Assembly: GCA_016180435.1 (NCBI GenBank)
Contig: JACPBG010000002.1
Span: 60,342-124,341 of the forward strand
Direction of reading: 5' to 3'
DNA from: Candidatus Sungiibacteriota bacterium
Lineage (GTDB): Bacteria > Patescibacteriota > Minisyncoccia > Sungbacterales > HO2-52-23
DNA: 64,000 bases
Shown here: positions 6,253 to 46,032 of the stretch, in pieces
Position numbering within the stretch: the first letter of the stretch is position 1
How the letters are laid out: each line of letters opens with the position of its first letter
The notes under the pieces: model-generated
What the model was told of the DNA's origin: nothing
Seen by the model: only the letters and a program-made list of their open reading frames with translations
Database searches by the model: none
Translations under genes and position numbers: made by a program

Positions 6253-6597
6253 ATGTCTATAAAAATCATTAAAAACAAAATATTTAAATCCGAGCTTTCG
6301 GAAATTGCCCAAAATCAATTCGGCGATTTTGTGAAAGCTGTGGTGGACATAAAAAAAGGGATAATGGCAGTCGGCGGTGAACTTCATGCTGATGAAGAAG
6401 CCCTGCTTTTAGAAGATGGCTCCCGGCAAGAAAATTTGTGGGGCATAAATTTGTATCCGAATAAAACCGCCAAGGATCGGATTGAATTTAATTCCATGAT
6501 AAATGTCCGGCCGTCCCAGGGAAATCGTTCGCGAGGGGTGGAGAATCCGGATATTCAGGAGAAGATAAAAACAATAGTTAAAAAGTTAGTTTCTTGA
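6253..6597 (+). CDS. hypothetical protein
   Basis: 114-aa ORF with coding-like composition; no recognisable motif. Confidence 0.45.
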   Translation: MSIKIIKNKIFKSELSEIAQNQFGDFVKAVVDIKKGIMAVGGELHADEEALLLEDGSRQENLWGINLYPNKTAKDRIEFNSMINVRPSQGNRSRGVENPDIQEKIKTIVKKLVS

Positions 6598-6601
6598 TGC
6601 C

Positions 6602-6931
6602 ATGCCCTTAGTACATAAAAATTTAGCGCGCGGAGCATGGCATAAACTCTCTTTAATTGAGCAATTGGCAAATATAGGCAGTGAAATAAGCCGTGCCCGG
6701 AATTGGCAGAATAAGGATCAGGGTATTTTTGAAAATGCGGTGTTAAGGGCGCTTGAGCTTTTTGATCTGACCCTGGCTGATCCGCGCTGGCGCGGCCGGC
6801 TGCGAGAAATAGCGCGGACACGAGAAGTATTTTTGGATGCGTTATCCGGCGGCAAAGAATATCAAAGTTCGCTGGATGACCTGGATCGATATTTTCTAAG
6901 TTTTGCCTATTGCGCCCGTTTAAATTTATAA
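6602..6931 (+). CDS. hypothetical protein
   Basis: 109-aa ORF beginning 5 bp after the previous gene. Confidence 0.4.
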   Translation: MPLVHKNLARGAWHKLSLIEQLANIGSEISRARNWQNKDQGIFENAVLRALELFDLTLADPRWRGRLREIARTREVFLDALSGGKEYQSSLDDLDRYFLSFAYCARLNL

Positions 6932-6957
6932 AAGAACGGCCATTTAATATAAAGCCA

Positions 6958-7491
6958 ATGATTCATTTCATCACCGGGAACAAGGATAAATTTGAGGAAA
7001 TAAAAGCGATTTTGCCCGAAATCGAGCGGATGAAAATTGATCTGCCGGAAATTCAGGAAATTGACGCCCATGAAATCATCCGGCAAAAATTAGAAAGCGC
7101 GCAAAAGCACGCCAAAGGCGAGTTTATGGTAGAGGACACCTCGCTTTATTTGGAATGTTTGAATGGTCTGCCCGGACCTCTGATAAAATGGTTTTTGAAA
7201 ACTATCGGCGTCGGGGGTTTAGCGGGCTTGGCAGAGAAATTGGAAAATACGAAAGCAGAAGCGAAGACCGTTATTGGATATATGAGTGGCAGTGGAGAAA
7301 TTAGATTTTTTGAAGGAATCGTAAAAGGACAGATTATTTCTCCGCGCGGGGAGAAACGTTTTGAGTGGGACCGGATTTTTAGGCCCGATGGTCATGATAA
7401 AACATTTGCCGAAATGGGAATGGAGGAGAAAAATAAGATCAGCATGCGCCGGATTGCGGTGAATAGATTAAAGAAGTTTTTGAAAGCGTAA
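6958..7491 (+). CDS. rdgB: non-canonical purine NTP pyrophosphatase (Ham1/ITPase, RdgB family)
   Basis: MIHFITGNKDKFEE, VEDTSLYLECLNGLPGP and FEWDRIFRPDG match Ham1-family motifs. Confidence 0.75.
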   Translation: MIHFITGNKDKFEEIKAILPEIERMKIDLPEIQEIDAHEIIRQKLESAQKHAKGEFMVEDTSLYLECLNGLPGPLIKWFLKTIGVGGLAGLAEKLENTKAEAKTVIGYMSGSGEIRFFEGIVKGQIISPRGEKRFEWDRIFRPDGHDKTFAEMGMEEKNKISMRRIAVNRLKKFLKA

Positions 7492-15066: not shown

Positions 15067-15666
15067 ATGCCAAAGGCAATTAAGAAAAAAATAGAAAGTA
15101 AGCCCGTGGAAAAAGAAGCGGAAACGCCGAAAAAGAAAGTTGAAGAAAAAGAAAATAAGATTAAAACCGCGGTGAAAGTAAAAAAACCTTCTAAACAGGG
15201 GGCAGAAGTTCCGGCACAAGAAATCTCGTCAGGATTCTCGGAACATAAAACGGATAAAGCAGAAAAGCCCAAAAAACCGGAGCGTTATTTTGAGGCGGTG
15301 GGCAGAAGAAAAACCGCAGTGGCTCGCGTGCGGTTATTTACCCGGCCCGGGGACTTTACGGTAAATGGCAGGTTATACAGTTTATATTTTCCGACTTTAA
15401 CGCTCCAGCAAATTATTGAGGATTCGTTGAAGAAAATGAAGCTTTTGGGAAGATTCAGGGTGTCAATTAAGGTCTCCGGCGGAGGAACTCATGCCCAAGC
15501 CGAGGCCATTCGCCACGGACTCGCGCGCTGTTTGGTTAAATTCAATCCGGATTTTCGCAAGCGTTTGCGACGTGCCGGATACATTACACGCGACCCACGC
15601 GCCAAAGAAAGGAAGAAATTCGGCTTGAAAAAGGCGCGTAAAGCTCCGCAGTGGGCGAAGCGGTAA
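15067..15666 (+). CDS. rpsI: 30S ribosomal protein S9 with ~75-aa Lys/Glu-rich N-terminal extension
   Basis: C-terminal YFEAVGRRKTAVARVRLF...GGGTHAQAEAIRHGLARCL...RDPRAKERKKFGLKKARKAPQWAKR is canonical S9; N-terminus MPKAIKKKIESKPVEKEAETPKKKVEEKENK... is low-complexity. Confidence 0.85.
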   Translation: MPKAIKKKIESKPVEKEAETPKKKVEEKENKIKTAVKVKKPSKQGAEVPAQEISSGFSEHKTDKAEKPKKPERYFEAVGRRKTAVARVRLFTRPGDFTVNGRLYSLYFPTLTLQQIIEDSLKKMKLLGRFRVSIKVSGGGTHAQAEAIRHGLARCLVKFNPDFRKRLRRAGYITRDPRAKERKKFGLKKARKAPQWAKR

Positions 15667-15810
15667 TTGCGCTCCCCAGACACGCTGTCTGCATCAATGT
15701 TTATGAGGATTTTTGAAAAACACGGGTTCACGACAAAAGTATGAGAAGCGCACAAATAGCACCGCATACGCGGCGTCTTCAGGGATTTGAAAATAACTGA
15801 ATTTGAACAA

Positions 15811-15836
15811 TAGCCGCGATGACCGCGGCTATTGTG
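15811..15836 (+). terminator. hairpin, candidate terminator or boundary of the r-protein transcription unit
   Basis: aatagccgcgatgaccgcggctattg. Confidence 0.4.
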
Positions 15837-15897
15837 TTATTATTACTTCTATGTTACTATTATTTCGGTTCATTTTCATAAATTATGGAGGAAGCAA

Positions 15898-16932
15898 ATG
15901 AGTGATAGGAAAGCACCGTATGACACCAATGAAGGAATTCAGCGTGCCGTCAAAACGTTGCATAAACTTAACGAGTTGGTGGCGAATCGCCATAGGGCTG
16001 GGTATGAAAGACATGAACGACTCAAGGAATTCTATGTCCTTGGACGGTGGCGTACTGACTCTTGTGGCAATTTTGGAAAGATCATCTCTGAGTTTATCCC
16101 GAAATTAAAGTTCCCCCAGATCCCCGACGTTTTAACCAACGAAGAGTTTTGGGCATTCTTGGGGGCGCAAGGGCTTGATGTTGAGAAAACCTTTGTTTCA
16201 AGCGGAATGTCGAACGACCTACCGCCTGATGACATCGTATGTTGTGTTTGCCAGCAGTCGTGGACTATTGAAAATTGCCATGACGTAGTTATCACCCATC
16301 AGCATCAGGATTTTTCATTGTCAGAGTTCGTTGGGAGACAGCTTTGGGAGGTACAACGGGTATACGGTATGCGAATTGATGCTTGCTACCGTATGCAGCC
16401 AGACATTCTTATTCGTAACGATCGATTCATTGATCTACGTCCGGAGCCAGAATTTGAAACGCTCAAAAGGAATGAGCATGGATGGGTGGGCAAAGAAGAT
16501 GGAGTTACGGAAAACTATGTGATTCAGTCAGGTGATGATGGGTTTTTCAACGTCTGGCATTTTCATCATCATGCGTGTAGTCGGAAAAAGCTCGAAGCTG
16601 ATATGCGGCAGCAATTCCGTGATGTACTCACAAAAGCGGGTTTTGCTAACACAATCCTCAAGTCAATTCCGAATCAGTATTGCCCATGTGAGCATTGTGC
16701 TCCGTGGTTCGTGGTACGGACTGAACATGGTACATTTACGATCGGATGGCGAAAGCGCGTCATCAATATCGATTGGAAGGCGACTGGTAAGAACTTTCTG
16801 CCGCTTTTCGACGATCAGGACGTTACGAAAGACAACCACTTGATTCATGCATGGGGTTACGAAAAAGCTACTGAATATTTTACGAGGATTAAGGGGTTTC
16901 TCATTCAGTCCGAGGCGTTAACTCAACGTTAA
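15898..16932 (+). CDS. Cys/His-rich hypothetical protein, putative metal-binding, unknown function
   Basis: ORF 15832..16932; start taken at ATG 15898 behind GGAGGAAGC. Contains CCVCQQSW, HQHQD, WHFHHHACSRKK and CPCEHCAPW. Codon usage unlike neighbouring core genes. Confidence 0.5.
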   Translation: MSDRKAPYDTNEGIQRAVKTLHKLNELVANRHRAGYERHERLKEFYVLGRWRTDSCGNFGKIISEFIPKLKFPQIPDVLTNEEFWAFLGAQGLDVEKTFVSSGMSNDLPPDDIVCCVCQQSWTIENCHDVVITHQHQDFSLSEFVGRQLWEVQRVYGMRIDACYRMQPDILIRNDRFIDLRPEPEFETLKRNEHGWVGKEDGVTENYVIQSGDDGFFNVWHFHHHACSRKKLEADMRQQFRDVLTKAGFANTILKSIPNQYCPCEHCAPWFVVRTEHGTFTIGWRKRVINIDWKATGKNFLPLFDDQDVTKDNHLIHAWGYEKATEYFTRIKGFLIQSEALTQR

Positions 16933-16938
16933 ACAAGA

Positions 16939-16967
16939 CTGCCTGGCTCTGCCAGCAGTTTTTATTT
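16939..16967 (+). terminator. rho-independent terminator after the Cys/His-rich gene
   Basis: ctgcctggctctgccagcag followed by tttttatttt. Confidence 0.7.
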
Positions 16968-17136
16968 TCAAAAACCTAAAGTCCACCACGCCTCAAAGCA
17001 TTGCAGTGGGCGAAGAGATAGACTAGCTTTCGTATGTTGACCCCAAAGACCGAACTAAAAAGTTTGGTCTTTTGGGTGAGGGGTAGGCGGGGAAGACCGA
17101 AATATTCTTGAGTCTTGGGTGGGGAAAAGCCCCTAC

Positions 17137-17193
17137 TTGACAAATTACCGGGATTCCCGGTAAGATTAATTTAATATCTAATTCCCGGTATTT
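17137..17193 (+). promoter_or_regulatory. candidate promoter with operator-like palindrome upstream of the GHKL ATPase gene
   Basis: TTGACA (17137-17142); palindrome ACCGGGATTCCCGGT in the spacer; half-site ATTCCCGGTA repeated at 17181-17190 just before ATG 17194. Confidence 0.45.
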
Positions 17194-18156
17194 ATGAAAA
17201 TATATCTTCCCCATAGTGCATTTTTAGGGAATATTGATCCATTCCTGGCGGCCTTTGACCCTAGCCATAAGGAAAAGCTCGAAATTACCGCTAATAAAAA
17301 TTGGATTTTTGTTCACCCCGTTGTATTAGCAATGGTAGCGGCGTTAGGTTTAACAGTTTATCGAAAAAATATTAAATGTGAAAAGATAGTGGCACGTTCG
17401 GGTCACTACCTTGAAAGGATGGGTTTATTCAAATTTCTTGATATTAAATCAGGGATGAAGATAACCGAACACGATCCATCGGGGCGATTCGTTCCACTAA
17501 CACAGATAAAAACCTCTGAACAACTCACAAAGTTTCTAACCGAAATGATTCCACTGCTTCATTTAGAACCTCGACATGCCGAACCAATCAAATATATTAT
17601 TAGTGAATTGGTGAGAAACGTGTTAGAGCACGCTCGTGCACCACAAGGAGCTATCGTATCTGCTCAATATCATGCAAAAAATAAAACAATTCGCATAGGA
17701 ATAGTTGATCGTGGTAGTGGTATAAAAAGCACAATTAATCAATCATGGGATGCAAGTAATGATCTTGAGGCTATTAAGTTGGCACTTATGCCGGGAGTTA
17801 CAGGAACTACAAAAAGAGAAGGCGGAACAGAACAAAATGCTGGAGCAGGTTTATTTTTTATTAAATCAATTGCTTATGTGAATCGTAATTTTTTTATGAT
17901 CTATAGCGGAAACGCAATGTATAAACTTCTGAAAAGAAGTGGCGCTAAAAAAATTATGCTTCATGCTAACCCCAATCTTGACAGACACTCAGAAAGAAAT
18001 AACTTACCTTATTGGGATGGTACGGCGGTGGGTGTAGATATTTCTTTAGATACTACACAAGAATTTACTGCACTTCTTGATCTTATAAGAGATACTTACT
18101 CGGAGGCAGTTAAAGAGCGTAAGCGTAATAGATATAAAAGGGCTAAATTTATTTAA
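17194..18156 (+). CDS. GHKL-superfamily (histidine-kinase-like / RsbW-like) ATP-binding protein with ~110-aa N-terminal domain of unknown function
   Basis: N-box ELVRNVLEHA, G1 IGIVDRGSGI, G2 GAGLFFIKS. Low GC (~37%) versus ~48% in flanks. Confidence 0.6.
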   Translation: MKIYLPHSAFLGNIDPFLAAFDPSHKEKLEITANKNWIFVHPVVLAMVAALGLTVYRKNIKCEKIVARSGHYLERMGLFKFLDIKSGMKITEHDPSGRFVPLTQIKTSEQLTKFLTEMIPLLHLEPRHAEPIKYIISELVRNVLEHARAPQGAIVSAQYHAKNKTIRIGIVDRGSGIKSTINQSWDASNDLEAIKLALMPGVTGTTKREGGTEQNAGAGLFFIKSIAYVNRNFFMIYSGNAMYKLLKRSGAKKIMLHANPNLDRHSERNNLPYWDGTAVGVDISLDTTQEFTALLDLIRDTYSEAVKERKRNRYKRAKFI

Positions 18157-18161
18157 ATATT

Positions 18162-18449
18162 ATGGTTACTATCGAACTTTTTCCCTTAGTGGGGGGCTTT
18201 GCGGAAAACAAGGATATTGCAAGAGACATAAGACGAGACCAAATTCTTCCAGCTCTGAAGAATGGAGAAAGTGTTGTCTTGGATTTTAGTGGCATAGAAT
18301 CTACAACACAATCTTTCGTTCACTCCTTAATTAGTGATGTAATGAGGGAATACGGGAGTGACGTTATGGATAAATTAGTATTTAAAAATTGCAGTGAAAC
18401 CATACAAAAAATCATCAGTATAGTTGTGGACTATATGCAGCAAACATAA
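18162..18449 (+). CDS. small STAS-like (anti-sigma-antagonist-like, DUF4325-like) protein, probable partner of the upstream ATPase
   Basis: 95 aa starting 6 bp after the ATPase gene; VVLDFSGIESTTQSFVHSLI resembles STAS-like folds. Assignment is from memory of the family and is tentative. Confidence 0.4.
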   Translation: MVTIELFPLVGGFAENKDIARDIRRDQILPALKNGESVVLDFSGIESTTQSFVHSLISDVMREYGSDVMDKLVFKNCSETIQKIISIVVDYMQQT

Positions 18450-18590
18450 TTTGTCTCAGTTAAAGACGTATTACGGTTCGCCCTGCGGAATTTTTTATAC
18501 GGACTTTTTATTTTCTCGCGTAAATTTTATTTGAAAAAACGCGAAAATAAAATGTCATCCGAAAGGATGACGTTTCTATATAGATACGCC

Positions 18591-19148
18591 CTAATGATAT
18601 GGAGAAAATGTCGCCTCTTTTAATCGCCAGTGTAATTTTATTCCCGCTTGATCTTCCGCAAAAATATCTTTCACGAAGTTGTCGAAACGAGCCGAGAATG
18701 GATACTTTTGCAAAGTAAGGTCGGCCAGAAGATGCAGCTTGTCTATCGGAAAGCGCTTCAGGCAAAATACATATGCCTCGGCAATGTCTGATCTTGAGCA
18801 TCCCTCGTCCCTTTCCCGCGGCCAGATACGATGCAGTACTGAAATCATCTTCAGTTTAAATTCGGAGTTTCCGAACCGCAAAAGAAAAAGAAGGAGCTGG
18901 CGGATTGTTCCTGCAAAAAAGATTTCCCAGCTCCTGCTTTTTCGTGCGGCTGAACCTTGTTTATAAAGACCCAATTTCCACCATAGTTCGGCGGGTCTGC
19001 TGTCCGGCATTTTCAGCACTTTCCATTGATATAACATCCAGTCAAGAACGCCGGGAACTGCAACCTCTTTTTGATAGCAGATTTTTTCTAAATCATGAAG
19101 CGCCAGTGGATACTTCTTTTTAAAAGTAGCACTTGTATGCCAAGGCAT
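18591..19148 (-). CDS. hypothetical protein, possibly an all-helical (heme-oxygenase/TenA-like) fold
   Basis: 185-aa ORF; RBS AGGAGA upstream of its ATG on the - strand. Confidence 0.4.
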   Translation of the reverse strand: MPWHTSATFKKKYPLALHDLEKICYQKEVAVPGVLDWMLYQWKVLKMPDSRPAELWWKLGLYKQGSAARKSRSWEIFFAGTIRQLLLFLLRFGNSEFKLKMISVLHRIWPRERDEGCSRSDIAEAYVFCLKRFPIDKLHLLADLTLQKYPFSARFDNFVKDIFAEDQAGIKLHWRLKEATFSPYH

Positions 19149-19274
19149 TTATTTATCTCCTATAGCTGGTATGAGCTTCACACAAGATAACAAAAAAACG
19201 TTATTTTGTCAATCTTGCAAAATAGTACAGATTATGCTATTTTAGTTTTAGTTCATTTTTCGCGTAGGTGCAAT

Positions 19275-19514
19275 ATGTCTAGTTGGCTGGATACGGAAAA
19301 AGGTCAAGAATTTTTCAAAAAAGCCTTTGAGGTTGCCGATTTGCCGGAGGTTGATGGAGATGTCTTGGAGCAAGGCACATACACCAACCGTCAAATCGCC
19401 GAAAAAGCCGGAAGCCCAGAAAAATTGCTGTCATTGCTTATGAATGTATCCGGTGATCGGGCGACGAAAAGATCGATCCTTAGTTTCGCCGTGGAAATGG
19501 ATTTAGAAGATTAA
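19275..19514 (+). CDS. hypothetical small protein
   Basis: ORF 19206..19514; start taken at ATG 19275 (MSSWLDTEKGQEFF...). Confidence 0.3.
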   Translation: MSSWLDTEKGQEFFKKAFEVADLPEVDGDVLEQGTYTNRQIAEKAGSPEKLLSLLMNVSGDRATKRSILSFAVEMDLED

Positions 19515-25161: not shown

Positions 25162-25812
25162 ATGATAATAAAAAAATTTTTACATTCCTGTATTTTACTT
25201 GAGGAACAAGGGCGAAGACTCCTTATTGACCCCGGTGATATGTCGTTTTTCGAGAAGAAAATATCACCCGAAGATATCGGTGGGGCGGATGTTATAGTTT
25301 TTACTCATAGGCATAGTGACCATTTAGATCTAGACATATTAAAAAAATTTTTAAGTTTGAAACAAGCTAAAATTTTGGCTCATGAAGAAATTGGTAAAAA
25401 ACTAAAGGAGTCGGATATTCCATACACATCGATATCTGCGGGTGAGACGAAAATAGTTGAAGGATTTACTATCGAAACAATTGAGGCGCCGCATGGACAT
25501 GGTTTAAGTGTGCCCTCGCCGTATAATCTCGGCTTTAAAATAGACAATGCATTTTTTCATCCCGGCGACTGTGTCTCGTTAGAAAACATTGAAACTAAAG
25601 TTTTGGCACTTCCCGTTATGGGTTCTTGGATGCGTTTTCCGGAGGCAGTATTATTTGCTAAACGAGTAAAGCCACAGTATGTAATTCCTATTCATGATGC
25701 ACTTATTGGGGACGTATTCATTGATAGGGTTTACGACTATTATCGAGGGCCATTAGAAAAAGACGGCATTTCCTTTTATCAGCTTGGATTAGATAATTCG
25801 CTTGAGATATAA
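25162..25812 (+). CDS. MBL-fold metallo-hydrolase
   Basis: VIVFTHRHSDHLD (HxHxDH motif). Confidence 0.65.
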   Translation: MIIKKFLHSCILLEEQGRRLLIDPGDMSFFEKKISPEDIGGADVIVFTHRHSDHLDLDILKKFLSLKQAKILAHEEIGKKLKESDIPYTSISAGETKIVEGFTIETIEAPHGHGLSVPSPYNLGFKIDNAFFHPGDCVSLENIETKVLALPVMGSWMRFPEAVLFAKRVKPQYVIPIHDALIGDVFIDRVYDYYRGPLEKDGISFYQLGLDNSLEI

Positions 25813-44838: not shown

Positions 44839-46032
44839 ATGTCTAAAATATCCACTCCGGGGCTTATTATTTTAGGGATTGCGCTTATTGCTGGAAGCGC
44901 GTACTGGTTTTGGCTTGATGATATTAAGCCACGGCTTGCGGATAATGATAAAATTGTCTGTATTCAAGACGCTAAACTCTGCCCCGACGGTTCAAAAGTC
45001 GGCCGCACCGGCCCGAGTTGCGAGTTTGCGTCTTGCCCGCCGCCACCCGTAGACCCGTCAAAAATTAAGGTTGATGATCATCAAGATGATATTTCGTATC
45101 TGCCAAGTTCCATATCCGGCTGGAAAAAATATAAGAACGGCAAATATGGTTTTGAATTTGATCTGCCTGAAGAATGGAGTGTCAAAGATGCCACCGGTGG
45201 TTTGCTGTCAAAAGGTAGCACGGAAAAATTTTATACCGCTTCGCCCGTACCTTATGACCATATTTTCGCCGTTTTAATTAAAACGAAATCCGTAGAAGAA
45301 TTAATTCAGCCGTATAAAAATAATTTAAACGCCGATCTCAATCAAAAAATTTTAGGAATTGAAAATATCGAAAAATTCGGACACCATACCGTGAGATTAA
45401 GATTGCAAAATATAACTACGGGACAGAAATTTTCTGAATATTTCGTTCGGCCATTCGGGCATAATTGGACATTCATTATAATCGGCGAAGGTGACGTTAC
45501 GCATCCTTATCATGATGTCGGCAACGAAATTGTTAATACTTTTAAATTTGTTGAACCGATAGATACCTCAACCTGGAAAACCTATCGTAACGAAAAATAC
45601 GGGTTTGAGGTGAAGTATCCAAGAGAGTGGGGAGAGGTTAAATTTCAAGCATTTGATCGGCTTTCCGGAAGTTGTATTGCACAAGGGATTGTTATTCGCG
45701 GTTCATTTACAAATAAAAAATTAAATTATTTTTGTAGCGAGTCTTTAGATTACAAACCGTGCGGCGATAGAGGCGGCTCTGTTTGTGATATCAAGAACTT
45801 CACTATCGAGAACGGTCAAATAGCAGATAACTCAGGAGGTAAGTATGACATTCTAAAAAGCGTAAAAACCAGTTCCGCGGGCATTGAAGGATATATTTTT
45901 GTAGATCCATATGGAGATATAGTAGGAATCATTAAATTTACGCATGGCGAGCTAGGCACCATTTCTTTCGGTTCTTACGAAGATGTTTTAATTTTAGAAC
46001 AAATCCTTTCCACTTTTAAATTTTTGAAATAA
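44839..46032 (+). CDS. secreted hypothetical protein with internally duplicated domain
   Basis: N-terminal TM/signal; repeats WKKYKNGKYGFEFDLPEEW and WKTYRNEKYGFEVKYPREW. Confidence 0.4.
   Translation: MSKISTPGLIILGIALIAGSAYWFWLDDIKPRLADNDKIVCIQDAKLCPDGSKVGRTGPSCEFASCPPPPVDPSKIKVDDHQDDISYLPSSISGWKKYKNGKYGFEFDLPEEWSVKDATGGLLSKGSTEKFYTASPVPYDHIFAVLIKTKSVEELIQPYKNNLNADLNQKILGIENIEKFGHHTVRLRLQNITTGQKFSEYFVRPFGHNWTFIIIGEGDVTHPYHDVGNEIVNTFKFVEPIDTSTWKTYRNEKYGFEVKYPREWGEVKFQAFDRLSGSCIAQGIVIRGSFTNKKLNYFCSESLDYKPCGDRGGSVCDIKNFTIENGQIADNSGGKYDILKSVKTSSAGIEGYIFVDPYGDIVGIIKFTHGELGTISFGSYEDVLILEQILSTFKFLK

Follow-up and report, generated by a model that had tools for sequence, protein, structure and literature searches.

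A horizontally acquired kinase-STAS gene pair with a putative palindromic operator in a Candidatus Sungiibacteriota genome

Introduction

Downstream of rpsI in a 64,000-nucleotide stretch of Candidatus Sungiibacteriota DNA (GenBank assembly GCA_016180435.1, contig JACPBG010000002.1, positions 60,342 to 124,341; the whole stretch is called the window hereafter) three plus-strand open reading frames (ORFs) are present between nucleotides 15811 and 18449. An earlier reading of these letters, referred to here as the original prediction, considered all three to be a low-GC insertion specifying a Cys/His-rich protein, a GHKL ATPase and a STAS-like partner. The questions that this locus raises are which of the three genes arrived together, and what a kinase-like protein paired with a STAS protein might do there. 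The second gene is named K (320 aa, kinase-like), the third S (95 aa, DUF4325), and the first is simply gene 1. Only K and S, with their promoter, were found to be foreign, and within that promoter lies a palindrome which recurs ahead of K homologues in loci labelled as bacterial and as archaeal. The pair is a new, effector-less and much more widespread variant of the kinase-STAS switch family.

It was only in 2026 that kinase-STAS pairs came to be recognised as modular sensors, which switch on bacterial immune operons (CapKS) or a PIN toxin (VapKSC). The latter consists of the kinase VapK, the STAS antitoxin VapS and the PIN toxin VapC, and protects against phage (Chambers et al., EMBO J 2026, PMC13373217). 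CapK, upon binding single-stranded DNA (ssDNA), phosphorylates CapS, a STAS-winged helix-turn-helix (wHTH) repressor of adjacent immune operons, and CapS autoregulates through palindromic TTAA half-sites (PMC13373217).

Results

Delimitation of the acquired unit

The composition of the genes was compared with that of the 38 window ORFs of at least 200 aa, which have a mean GC content of 0.462 and a mean GC content at third codon positions (GC3) of 0.459 (standard deviation 0.055). K (GC 0.371, GC3 0.262) has the lowest values of this set in both measures, and S has values of 0.368 and 0.344, respectively, so that the GC content of about 37% first reported for the two genes, and their status as outliers, held up. 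Gene 1 is native in composition (GC 0.457, GC3 0.470).

The contig carrying the closest homolog of gene 1 (L018) was used as the synteny reference. It is collinear with the window over rpsK, rpoA, rplQ, rplM, rpsI and gene 1, and again at a gene for a 368-aa protein, murA and mreB. Between these two blocks L018 possesses a DUF2238 gene and does not contain the pair, and the window possesses K-S, two small ORFs and genes for an ABC transporter. Comparison of the position after rpsI, as had been proposed, thus yields a divided answer: the relative keeps gene 1, contrary to the three-gene insertion, and lacks K and S, in keeping with an insertion of those two. Since gene 1 is collinear in L018, where there is no pair, and only K and S are compositional outliers, gene 1 is assigned to the local backbone.

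K was searched against 185,579 species-representative genomes, at least 485 of which contain a close relative, and the best 80 loci among these (62–75% identity in K) constituted the comparison set. DNA similarity between the window and 79 other pair-bearing loci is limited to nucleotides 17134–18450, that is, to promoter, K and S; in the promoter region it begins at 17134–17146. From these comparisons the mobile unit is a segment of ~1.32 kb comprising promoter, K and S. Neither flanking repeats, tRNA nor integrase were found with it, no terminal repeats bounding it were seen in the comparison with other loci, and the 64-kb window contains no tRNA or Rfam RNA, hence no tRNA-linked integration site. 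The pair is regarded as foreign because it is compositionally aberrant, is absent from the syntenic relative, and has homologs of 62–76% identity in unrelated bacteria and archaea. By these three lines of comparison the horizontal acquisition of K and S in this Sungiibacteriota genome, as originally predicted, was shown.

The terminator-like site that follows S (Table 1) is not a conserved part of the unit, being found in 1 of 60 other loci. Between the pair and the ABC transporter are the two small ORFs, at 18591–19148 (minus strand, 185 aa) and 19206–19514 (plus strand, 102/79 aa). None of the domain libraries gave a match for them, and they belong to a window-specific segment missing in L018.

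The kinase-like protein K

The product of K (ORF 17194–18156) is a basic protein (isoelectric point (pI) 9.7) with a match to HATPase_c_2 (E 1.6e-6). No variation in N142, D172xGxG176 or G217xG219 was seen across 40 homologs, and conservation of E138 exceeds 90%, which confirms that this is a GHKL protein with N, G1 and G2 boxes. The AlphaFold2 model was confident (predicted local distance difference test score 90.7, predicted template modelling score 0.91). Its closest solved structures are SpoIIAB and RsbW, with SiaB/SiaC also near the top of the structural matches. The protein also matches phrog_3364 over its full length.

The N-terminal domain, which the original prediction had correctly noticed and left as unknown, appears to have a STAS-like fold, an assignment made from structure comparison alone. 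Its alignment with the S family by hhalign was not significant (probability <1%), and its profile gave no match among PDB sequences. Single-sequence PDB searches with K and S likewise gave no useful match; the matches that were obtained came from profile searches. Pfam scans of K and S revealed no helix-turn-helix (HTH) and no wHTH, and the K model begins directly at the STAS-like domain. At the other end of the protein, F319 in the C-terminal tail is at least 90% conserved, and the basic tail is a candidate nucleic-acid contact.

The STAS protein S and its acceptor position

S is acidic (pI 4.6) and begins after a 5-nt spacer behind the K stop codon; its DUF4325 match (Table 1) bears out the STAS-like protein expected just after the ATPase. 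The best PDB match of the S profile is VapS (9Z7O, E 0.0016), and S stops right after the STAS fold, where the alignment to VapS ends. Thirteen positions are invariant in 33 sequences, surface-type residues among them.

The segment T49-Q50-S51-F52 is invariant in S and is kept also in distant K-S fusion proteins. The column of the VapS phospho-acceptor, S48, is occupied in S by the invariant Gln50, a result on which HMMER, hhalign and MAFFT agree. The serine of a Deinococcus VapS-like protein falls in this same column, as does S58 of SpoIIAA. The +9 spacing of the column from the conserved LDF/LNL strand is retained. Judging from these alignments, either the acceptor would be shifted by one residue (to T49 or S51), or S would be a non-phosphorylatable pseudosubstrate complexed with K and ATP.

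Promoter and putative operator

K is preceded by a sigma-70-type promoter with 10 of 12 consensus matches, and between its -35 and -10 elements lies a perfect 17-bp palindrome, TACCGGGATTCCCGGTA, the putative operator. It is unique in the window, even when 3 mismatches are permitted. An extra half-site, TCCCGGTA, is situated close to the K start codon, and the same half-site occurs 10–30 nt before the start in many archaeal and bacterial loci. While the pairing of a kinase with a STAS protein had been recognised in the original prediction, this palindrome, like the glutamine at the acceptor position, had been missed.

Sites with no more than 2 mismatches were counted in the 80 loci. There were 89 in the 16,000 nt upstream of K versus 4 in the 874,302 nt elsewhere, an enrichment of ~1,200-fold, and 67 of the loci have at least one. 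In 40 of 48 bacterial-labelled loci the palindrome is beside or inside a sigma-70-like promoter. In 26 of 32 archaeal-labelled loci it immediately precedes a TTTATAAATA-type TATA box, and the half-site is near the start codon. In both groups the palindrome thereby occupies a place in the promoter that is typical of repressor sites. Since the promoter is swapped according to the host domain and the operator is kept, the factor which binds the operator would have to be encoded by the module itself. The possibility that the palindrome is merely a terminator hairpin was rejected in view of its fixed position relative to -35/-10 or TATA, the lack of a T-run, and the half-sites near the start.

Among IMG/VR contigs, a K-S subfamily of 46% identity (L107, 5948–5991) has a different palindrome with 20-nt arms, ATACCCGTAGATCGTATATT/AAAATACGACCTACGGGTAT, across the -35 element. 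This subfamily suggests that the putative operator and the proteins co-evolve. The operator variants CCWGG and CCGGG were also compared; there are only 3 variant loci, and no column of K or S tracks them. When viral contigs were scanned for exact copies of the palindrome, 29 contained it, none with K or S nearby, and many of the hits resemble terminator stems. In four viral contigs (L120 at 1988, L134 at 9317, L136 at 1734 and L143 at 10953) two copies or near-copies of TACCGGGAWTCCCGGTA occur within ~30 nt, with no K or S in the fetched flanks. A viral regulon governed by the operator is not clearly evident from the scan.

Gene pairing and distribution

In all of the 74 loci with room for it, K is followed by a partner ORF of 94–105 aa, which overlaps K by 4 bp in 68 of these; K-S is a self-contained and translationally coupled operon. 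Natural K-S fusion proteins exist (P0252, P0369, P0372 and P0379) and provide independent evidence that K and S act together; phrog_5816 spans both proteins, as does the N-terminus of one PADLOC DrmA model. When the 1,026 neighbouring ORFs of the 80 loci were clustered, only K and S proved to be common. There is no conserved third gene: no other family occurs in more than 7 of the 80 loci, and those which recur do so at scattered positions. The gene downstream of S is on the same strand in 35 loci and on the opposite strand in 23 (p = 0.15). The annotated contexts are mostly housekeeping ones, namely SecDF/BacA/FtsK, the CCA-adding enzyme, a MurJ-like protein, Phe-tRNA synthetase/TGT and RuvA/Mur ligase.

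Homologs of K form 3,100 clusters at 90% identity, the best 120 of which are all ~320 aa and 65–76% identical; counted separately at the 50% clustering level, there are 2,025 clusters with E <= 1e-3. Taxonomic assignments of the loci are labels, and those of metagenome-assembled genomes can be wrong. Among the best 80 loci the bacterial labels include many phyla of the candidate phyla radiation (CPR), Omnitrophota, Elusimicrobia, WOR-1, Proteobacteria, Chlamydiae and Actinobacteria, and the archaeal ones include Woese-, Nano-, Aenigm-, Micr- and Iainarchaeota and Thermoplasmatota. The mean identity of K between archaea and bacteria is 0.67, versus 0.66 within bacteria, and a crude tree of K requires at least 3 domain switches. 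In one locus (L111) the pair lies beside the archaeal RNA polymerase genes for Rpb5, Rpb2 and Rpb1, which, together with the split in promoter type, argues that the archaeal hosts are real. By these comparisons the cassette was shown to have spread across Bacteria and Archaea.

Prophages of Streptococcus and Francisella carry distant pairs at their accessory-gene (moron) ends. In a Zambryskibacteria-type contig (L013, 65–1651) a serine recombinase (Resolvase/Recombinase/Zn_ribbon_recom) replaces the sequence that lies upstream of K-S in sister contigs, which hints at local rearrangement near the module.

Relationship to characterised systems

A search with a VapS fragment led to a K-STAS-PIN operon on plasmid P5 of Deinococcus gobiensis. 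This locus (L113, 1512–3864) encodes an HTH regulator, an ATP-binding protein, a STAS-like protein and a PIN protein, and was taken as the VapKSC-type reference. By hhalign the K profile matches the Deinococcus VapK-like kinase over residues 24–289, and hence both domains (99.1%, E 8e-19; 22% identity), and S matches the STAS protein (78%, E 2e-5). On the strength of these profile alignments K and S are homologs of VapK and VapS. As in VapK, a STAS-like domain is followed in K by the GHKL kinase and there is no HTH; as in VapKSC, a small DUF4325/STAS protein comes directly after the kinase, in the order K then S. In contrast, K-S has no VapC/PIN gene, the next ORF in the window being unrelated and on the opposite strand; S lacks the C-terminal extension (residues 94–116) with which VapS inhibits VapC; Gln50 stands where VapS has its phospho-acceptor; the K-S promoter contains a conserved palindrome; and the module is found in both Archaea and Bacteria.

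With CapK/CapS the pair shares the kinase-plus-STAS-protein arrangement with the kinase first, the STAS domain before GHKL, and palindromic sites in its own promoter region, which would imply autoregulation. It differs in that K is without the N-terminal HTH of CapK and S without the C-terminal wHTH of CapS, in the operator (TACCGGGAWTCCCGGTA rather than TTAA half-sites), and in having no downstream immune operon. The uncharacterised regulatory or defence cassette envisaged originally was therefore the right general class, VapK/VapS and CapK/CapS being its closest characterised relatives.

The resemblance to SpoIIAB/SpoIIAA and RsbW/RsbV is more distant. A sigma factor and a PP2C phosphatase are both missing from the surrounding 11.5 kb, in agreement with what the original prediction had remarked. 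Unlike SpoIIAB and RsbW, K possesses the extra STAS-like domain and a C-terminal helix; unlike SpoIIAA and RsbV, S has Gln in place of the canonical Ser, and the module is mobile and occurs in Archaea.

The organisation is also reminiscent of type II toxin-antitoxin systems: two genes in a compact operon, the stop codon of the first overlapping the start codon of the second, a palindrome over the promoter, one basic and one acidic product, and a patchy horizontal distribution with lone insertions among housekeeping genes and occasional carriage by prophages or plasmids. K-S differs from these systems in lacking a known toxin or antitoxin fold and a DNA-binding antitoxin domain. Membership of a DISARM system was rejected, K and S matching only positions 34–248 and 323–389 of the 1750-position DrmA model (PADLOC PDLC02567). 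A K-S-like module is the N-terminal part of some DrmA proteins, and the helicase body is not matched.

Gene 1 and neighbouring features

The 344-aa Cys/His protein exists as predicted, with the motifs CCVCQQSW, HFHHHACSRKK and CPCEHCAPW and, at its 3' end, a short terminator-like hairpin with T-run (16943–16955); the L018 homolog has a similar hairpin and T-run. Searches of Pfam, NCBIfam, PHROGs and PADLOC gave no match for the protein. Residues C115, C118, H224 and C227 are invariant in the family, a set which, from the alignment, is compatible with a zinc site. There are 228 homologs, the named sources are exclusively Patescibacteria, and identity declines smoothly from 78% to 38%. Homologs without the pair occur in five contigs (L018–L022) in differing contexts, gene 1 is never beside K-S in 80 other pair loci, and the spacer between gene 1 and K is 261 bp. 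Taken on its sequence relationships gene 1 is a separate CPR protein outside the cassette, and not the cassette member it had been taken for. The hairpin 3' of rpsI (15807–15835, 12-bp stem), proposed as the boundary of the insertion, turned out to be an ordinary operon terminator.

Gene 1 (15898–16932) is 78% identical to its L018 counterpart (6253–7266), the highest value in the syntenic block; the flanking ribosomal proteins are 44–62% identical, or 44–69% when rpoA, murA and mreB are included. Either an unusual constraint or recent exchange would account for this. The remnant copy of the rpsI 3' end beyond gene 1 (Table 1) encodes KALQWAKR-stop, rpsI itself ending in KAPQWAKR-stop, and a 13-nt exact direct repeat, GCAGTGGGCGAAG, at 15648 and 17003 has no equivalent in L018. 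Similarity between the window and L018 ceases at ~16968, just before the remnant, which may be a scar left when gene 1 or the variable segment entered by recombination.

At 199 aa, ribosomal protein S9 (15067–15666) is longer than its L018 orthologue (138 aa) and begins with an extension of ~60 aa rich in Lys and Glu. Two further compositional outliers, at 25162–25812 (GC 0.376, GC3 0.313) and 44839–46032 (GC 0.392, GC3 0.352), may be other horizontally acquired genes. The product of the former is a metallo-beta-lactamase (MBL)-fold protein (Lactamase_B_2/3), and a faint match to the anti-Pycsar protein Apyc1 was recorded for L001.

Table 1. Coordinates of features at the K-S locus and immediately upstream of it
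Feature	Position in window	Strand	Details
Gene 1, Patescibacteria-restricted Cys/His protein (context only)	15898..16932	+	344 aa; ATG start; GGAGG ribosome-binding site
Remnant copy of rpsI 3' end (context)	16995..17021	+	21/27 nt identical to 15640–15666
Sigma-70-type promoter	17137..17166	+	-35 TTGACA 17137–17142; 18-nt spacer; -10 TAAGAT 17161–17166; 10/12 consensus matches
Putative operator, perfect 17-bp palindrome TACCGGGATTCCCGGTA	17146..17162	.	between -35 and -10
Extra operator half-site TCCCGGTA	17183..17190	+	3 nt 5' of K start codon
K, N-terminal STAS-like domain (residues 1–124)	17194..17565	+	invariant P42; RMGLF, GRFIPLT and PLLH motifs
K, GHKL (Bergerat-fold) kinase/ATPase domain, SpoIIAB/RsbW type (residues 125–287)	17566..18054	+	
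K, N box (E138/N142)	17617–17619		codon of N142
K, G1 box (D172–G176)	17707–17721		
K, G2 box (G217–G219)	17842–17850		
K, C-terminal helix and basic tail KERKRNRYKRAKFI (residues 288–320 plus stop)	18055..18156	+	model helix 288–314; conservation; pI 9.99
S, single-domain STAS-like protein (DUF4325)	18162..18449	+	95 aa; Pfam E 4e-16; T49-Q50-S51-F52 at 18306–18317
Weak terminator-like hairpin and T-run after S	18477..18489	+	next gene on opposite strand

Discussion

Proposed mechanism

The reading which we prefer, at a probability of about 0.4, is that K-S is an autoregulated, horizontally mobile kinase/STAS switch, toxin-antitoxin-like or defence-like in nature, and a pared-down relative of VapK/VapS and CapK/CapS. 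The palindrome would be bound, and the operon repressed, by something that the module itself encodes, either the basic K, likely as a dimer, or a K-S complex. K would bind ATP and dock S at its active site, by analogy with the docking of SpoIIAA by SpoIIAB. A cue would then alter the complex; if CapK and VapK are a guide, this could be ssDNA produced when DNA is damaged or in the course of infection, or else a shift in ATP/ADP. The alteration might be phosphorylation of T49 or S51, or the release of S as a pseudosubstrate by virtue of Gln50. As a result the operon would be derepressed and K freed, and the freed K would be the effector, a toxic kinase or ATPase acting in the manner of a toxin-antitoxin system or of abortive defence. 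The module is under strong purifying selection. A conflict-related role fits the pairs at prophage moron ends, the full-length match to phrog_3364 and the K-S-like module fused within DrmA.

Several observations weigh against this switch. Most of the loci are outside defence islands. Neither the Pfam scans nor the K model revealed a recognisable DNA-binding domain in K or S. The conserved Ser/Thr expected at STAS helix 2 (VapS S48) is not found in S, and from the alignments canonical phosphorylation of S might not occur. Distant K-like genes are present on two plasmids without S in the (incomplete) plasmid gene tables, from which it is argued that K is not obligatorily toxic. Possibly wrong labels of metagenome genomes are a caveat on the spread across two domains. 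As regards toxicity, defence and kinase activity, K-S is known here from sequence alone. Lastly, a scan of 2.9 million viral contigs for K found only 4 relatives; a virus-borne origin of the pair is likewise unsupported by this count.

A bolder form of the proposal, which we consider doubtful, is that the effector-less pair is in itself a complete minimal system in Bacteria and Archaea. K, or K-S, would be a sequence-specific repressor without a canonical DNA-binding domain, S would be a pseudosubstrate locking K in an ATP-dependent complex, and a nucleic-acid or energy cue would release K, this release being signal and output at once. If true, this would amount to a new mode of DNA recognition and a new partner-switching logic, and the pair, common among CPR bacteria and DPANN archaea, would be a portable cassette for immunity or addiction.

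Alternative explanations

The pair could instead be a partner switch acting on the host, in which S, phosphorylated or not, or K binds a universally conserved component, for example of translation, replication or nucleotide metabolism, and so tunes physiology, like SiaC or HsbA downstream of their kinases, and is neither a toxin nor a defence system. The nearness of SiaB/SiaC among the structural matches and the siting of loci amid housekeeping genes agree with this, and an external partner that is itself conserved would be in keeping with the very high conservation of S; binding to other proteins is, moreover, a common action of STAS-only proteins (PMC8256260). However, a module that crosses domains at 62–76% identity needs a target common to both, of which there is no indication, and no phosphatase to reset the switch accompanies the pair, either in the 11.5 kb around it or in the 80 loci. 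We consider such a host-directed role unlikely.

An improbable alternative is a controller of the CapKS kind, with the pair switching on an adjacent operon, for example a defence system, upon DNA damage. CapK/CapS are homologous in kind, precede immune operons and autoregulate via palindromes; S is closely followed by a co-directional gene in some loci (FtsK in L007, Mur ligase in L112), and one archaeal locus has AAA_15 and YhcG nuclease-like neighbours. What speaks against it is that S has no wHTH and K no HTH, that no downstream family is conserved and the orientation of the following gene is unbiased (35 versus 23 loci, p = 0.15), and that in the window S is followed, beyond terminator-like hairpins, by a gene of opposite orientation and the palindrome occurs once in 64 kb.

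That K and S are an ordinary anti-sigma factor and anti-anti-sigma factor (RsbW/RsbV or SpoIIAB/SpoIIAA) acting on a host sigma factor is very improbable. SpoIIAB and RsbW are the closest solved structures and account for the NCBIfam matches, and the Joint Genome Institute (JGI) annotates K homologs as 'anti-sigma regulatory factor'. Those NCBIfam matches are nevertheless weak and far below the cut-offs (21.9 versus 135), there is neither a sigma factor nor PP2C nearby, the pair is foreign to the genome, and neither SpoIIAB nor RsbW possesses the STAS-like domain with which K begins. Archaeal chromosomes, too, carry this module together with its operator, and archaea are not known to have sigma factors; the anti-sigma reading is effectively refuted, and the earlier doubt about it on account of the missing sigma factor and phosphatase was well placed.

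Hardly credible is a three-gene cassette in which gene 1 works with the ATPase and STAS protein: the genes are adjacent on one strand, and the rpsI remnant after gene 1 together with its 78% identity against flanks of 44–62% hints at an unusual history, but the GC3 of gene 1 is native, a terminator-like hairpin of its own and a long spacer separate it from K, and it occurs without the pair in L018 and the other four contigs and is missing from 80 of 80 other pair loci. Synteny and composition thus exclude such a cassette.

Significance

The autoregulated switch favoured above matters in several respects. The function of K-S would tell what the minimal working unit of the kinase-STAS sensor family is. 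Known defence systems are sparse in the small genomes of CPR bacteria and DPANN archaea, and the function of the pair would also tell whether such genomes use it for defence or addiction. The operator, shared across the two domains, offers an experimental handle on what is possibly a new mode of DNA binding.

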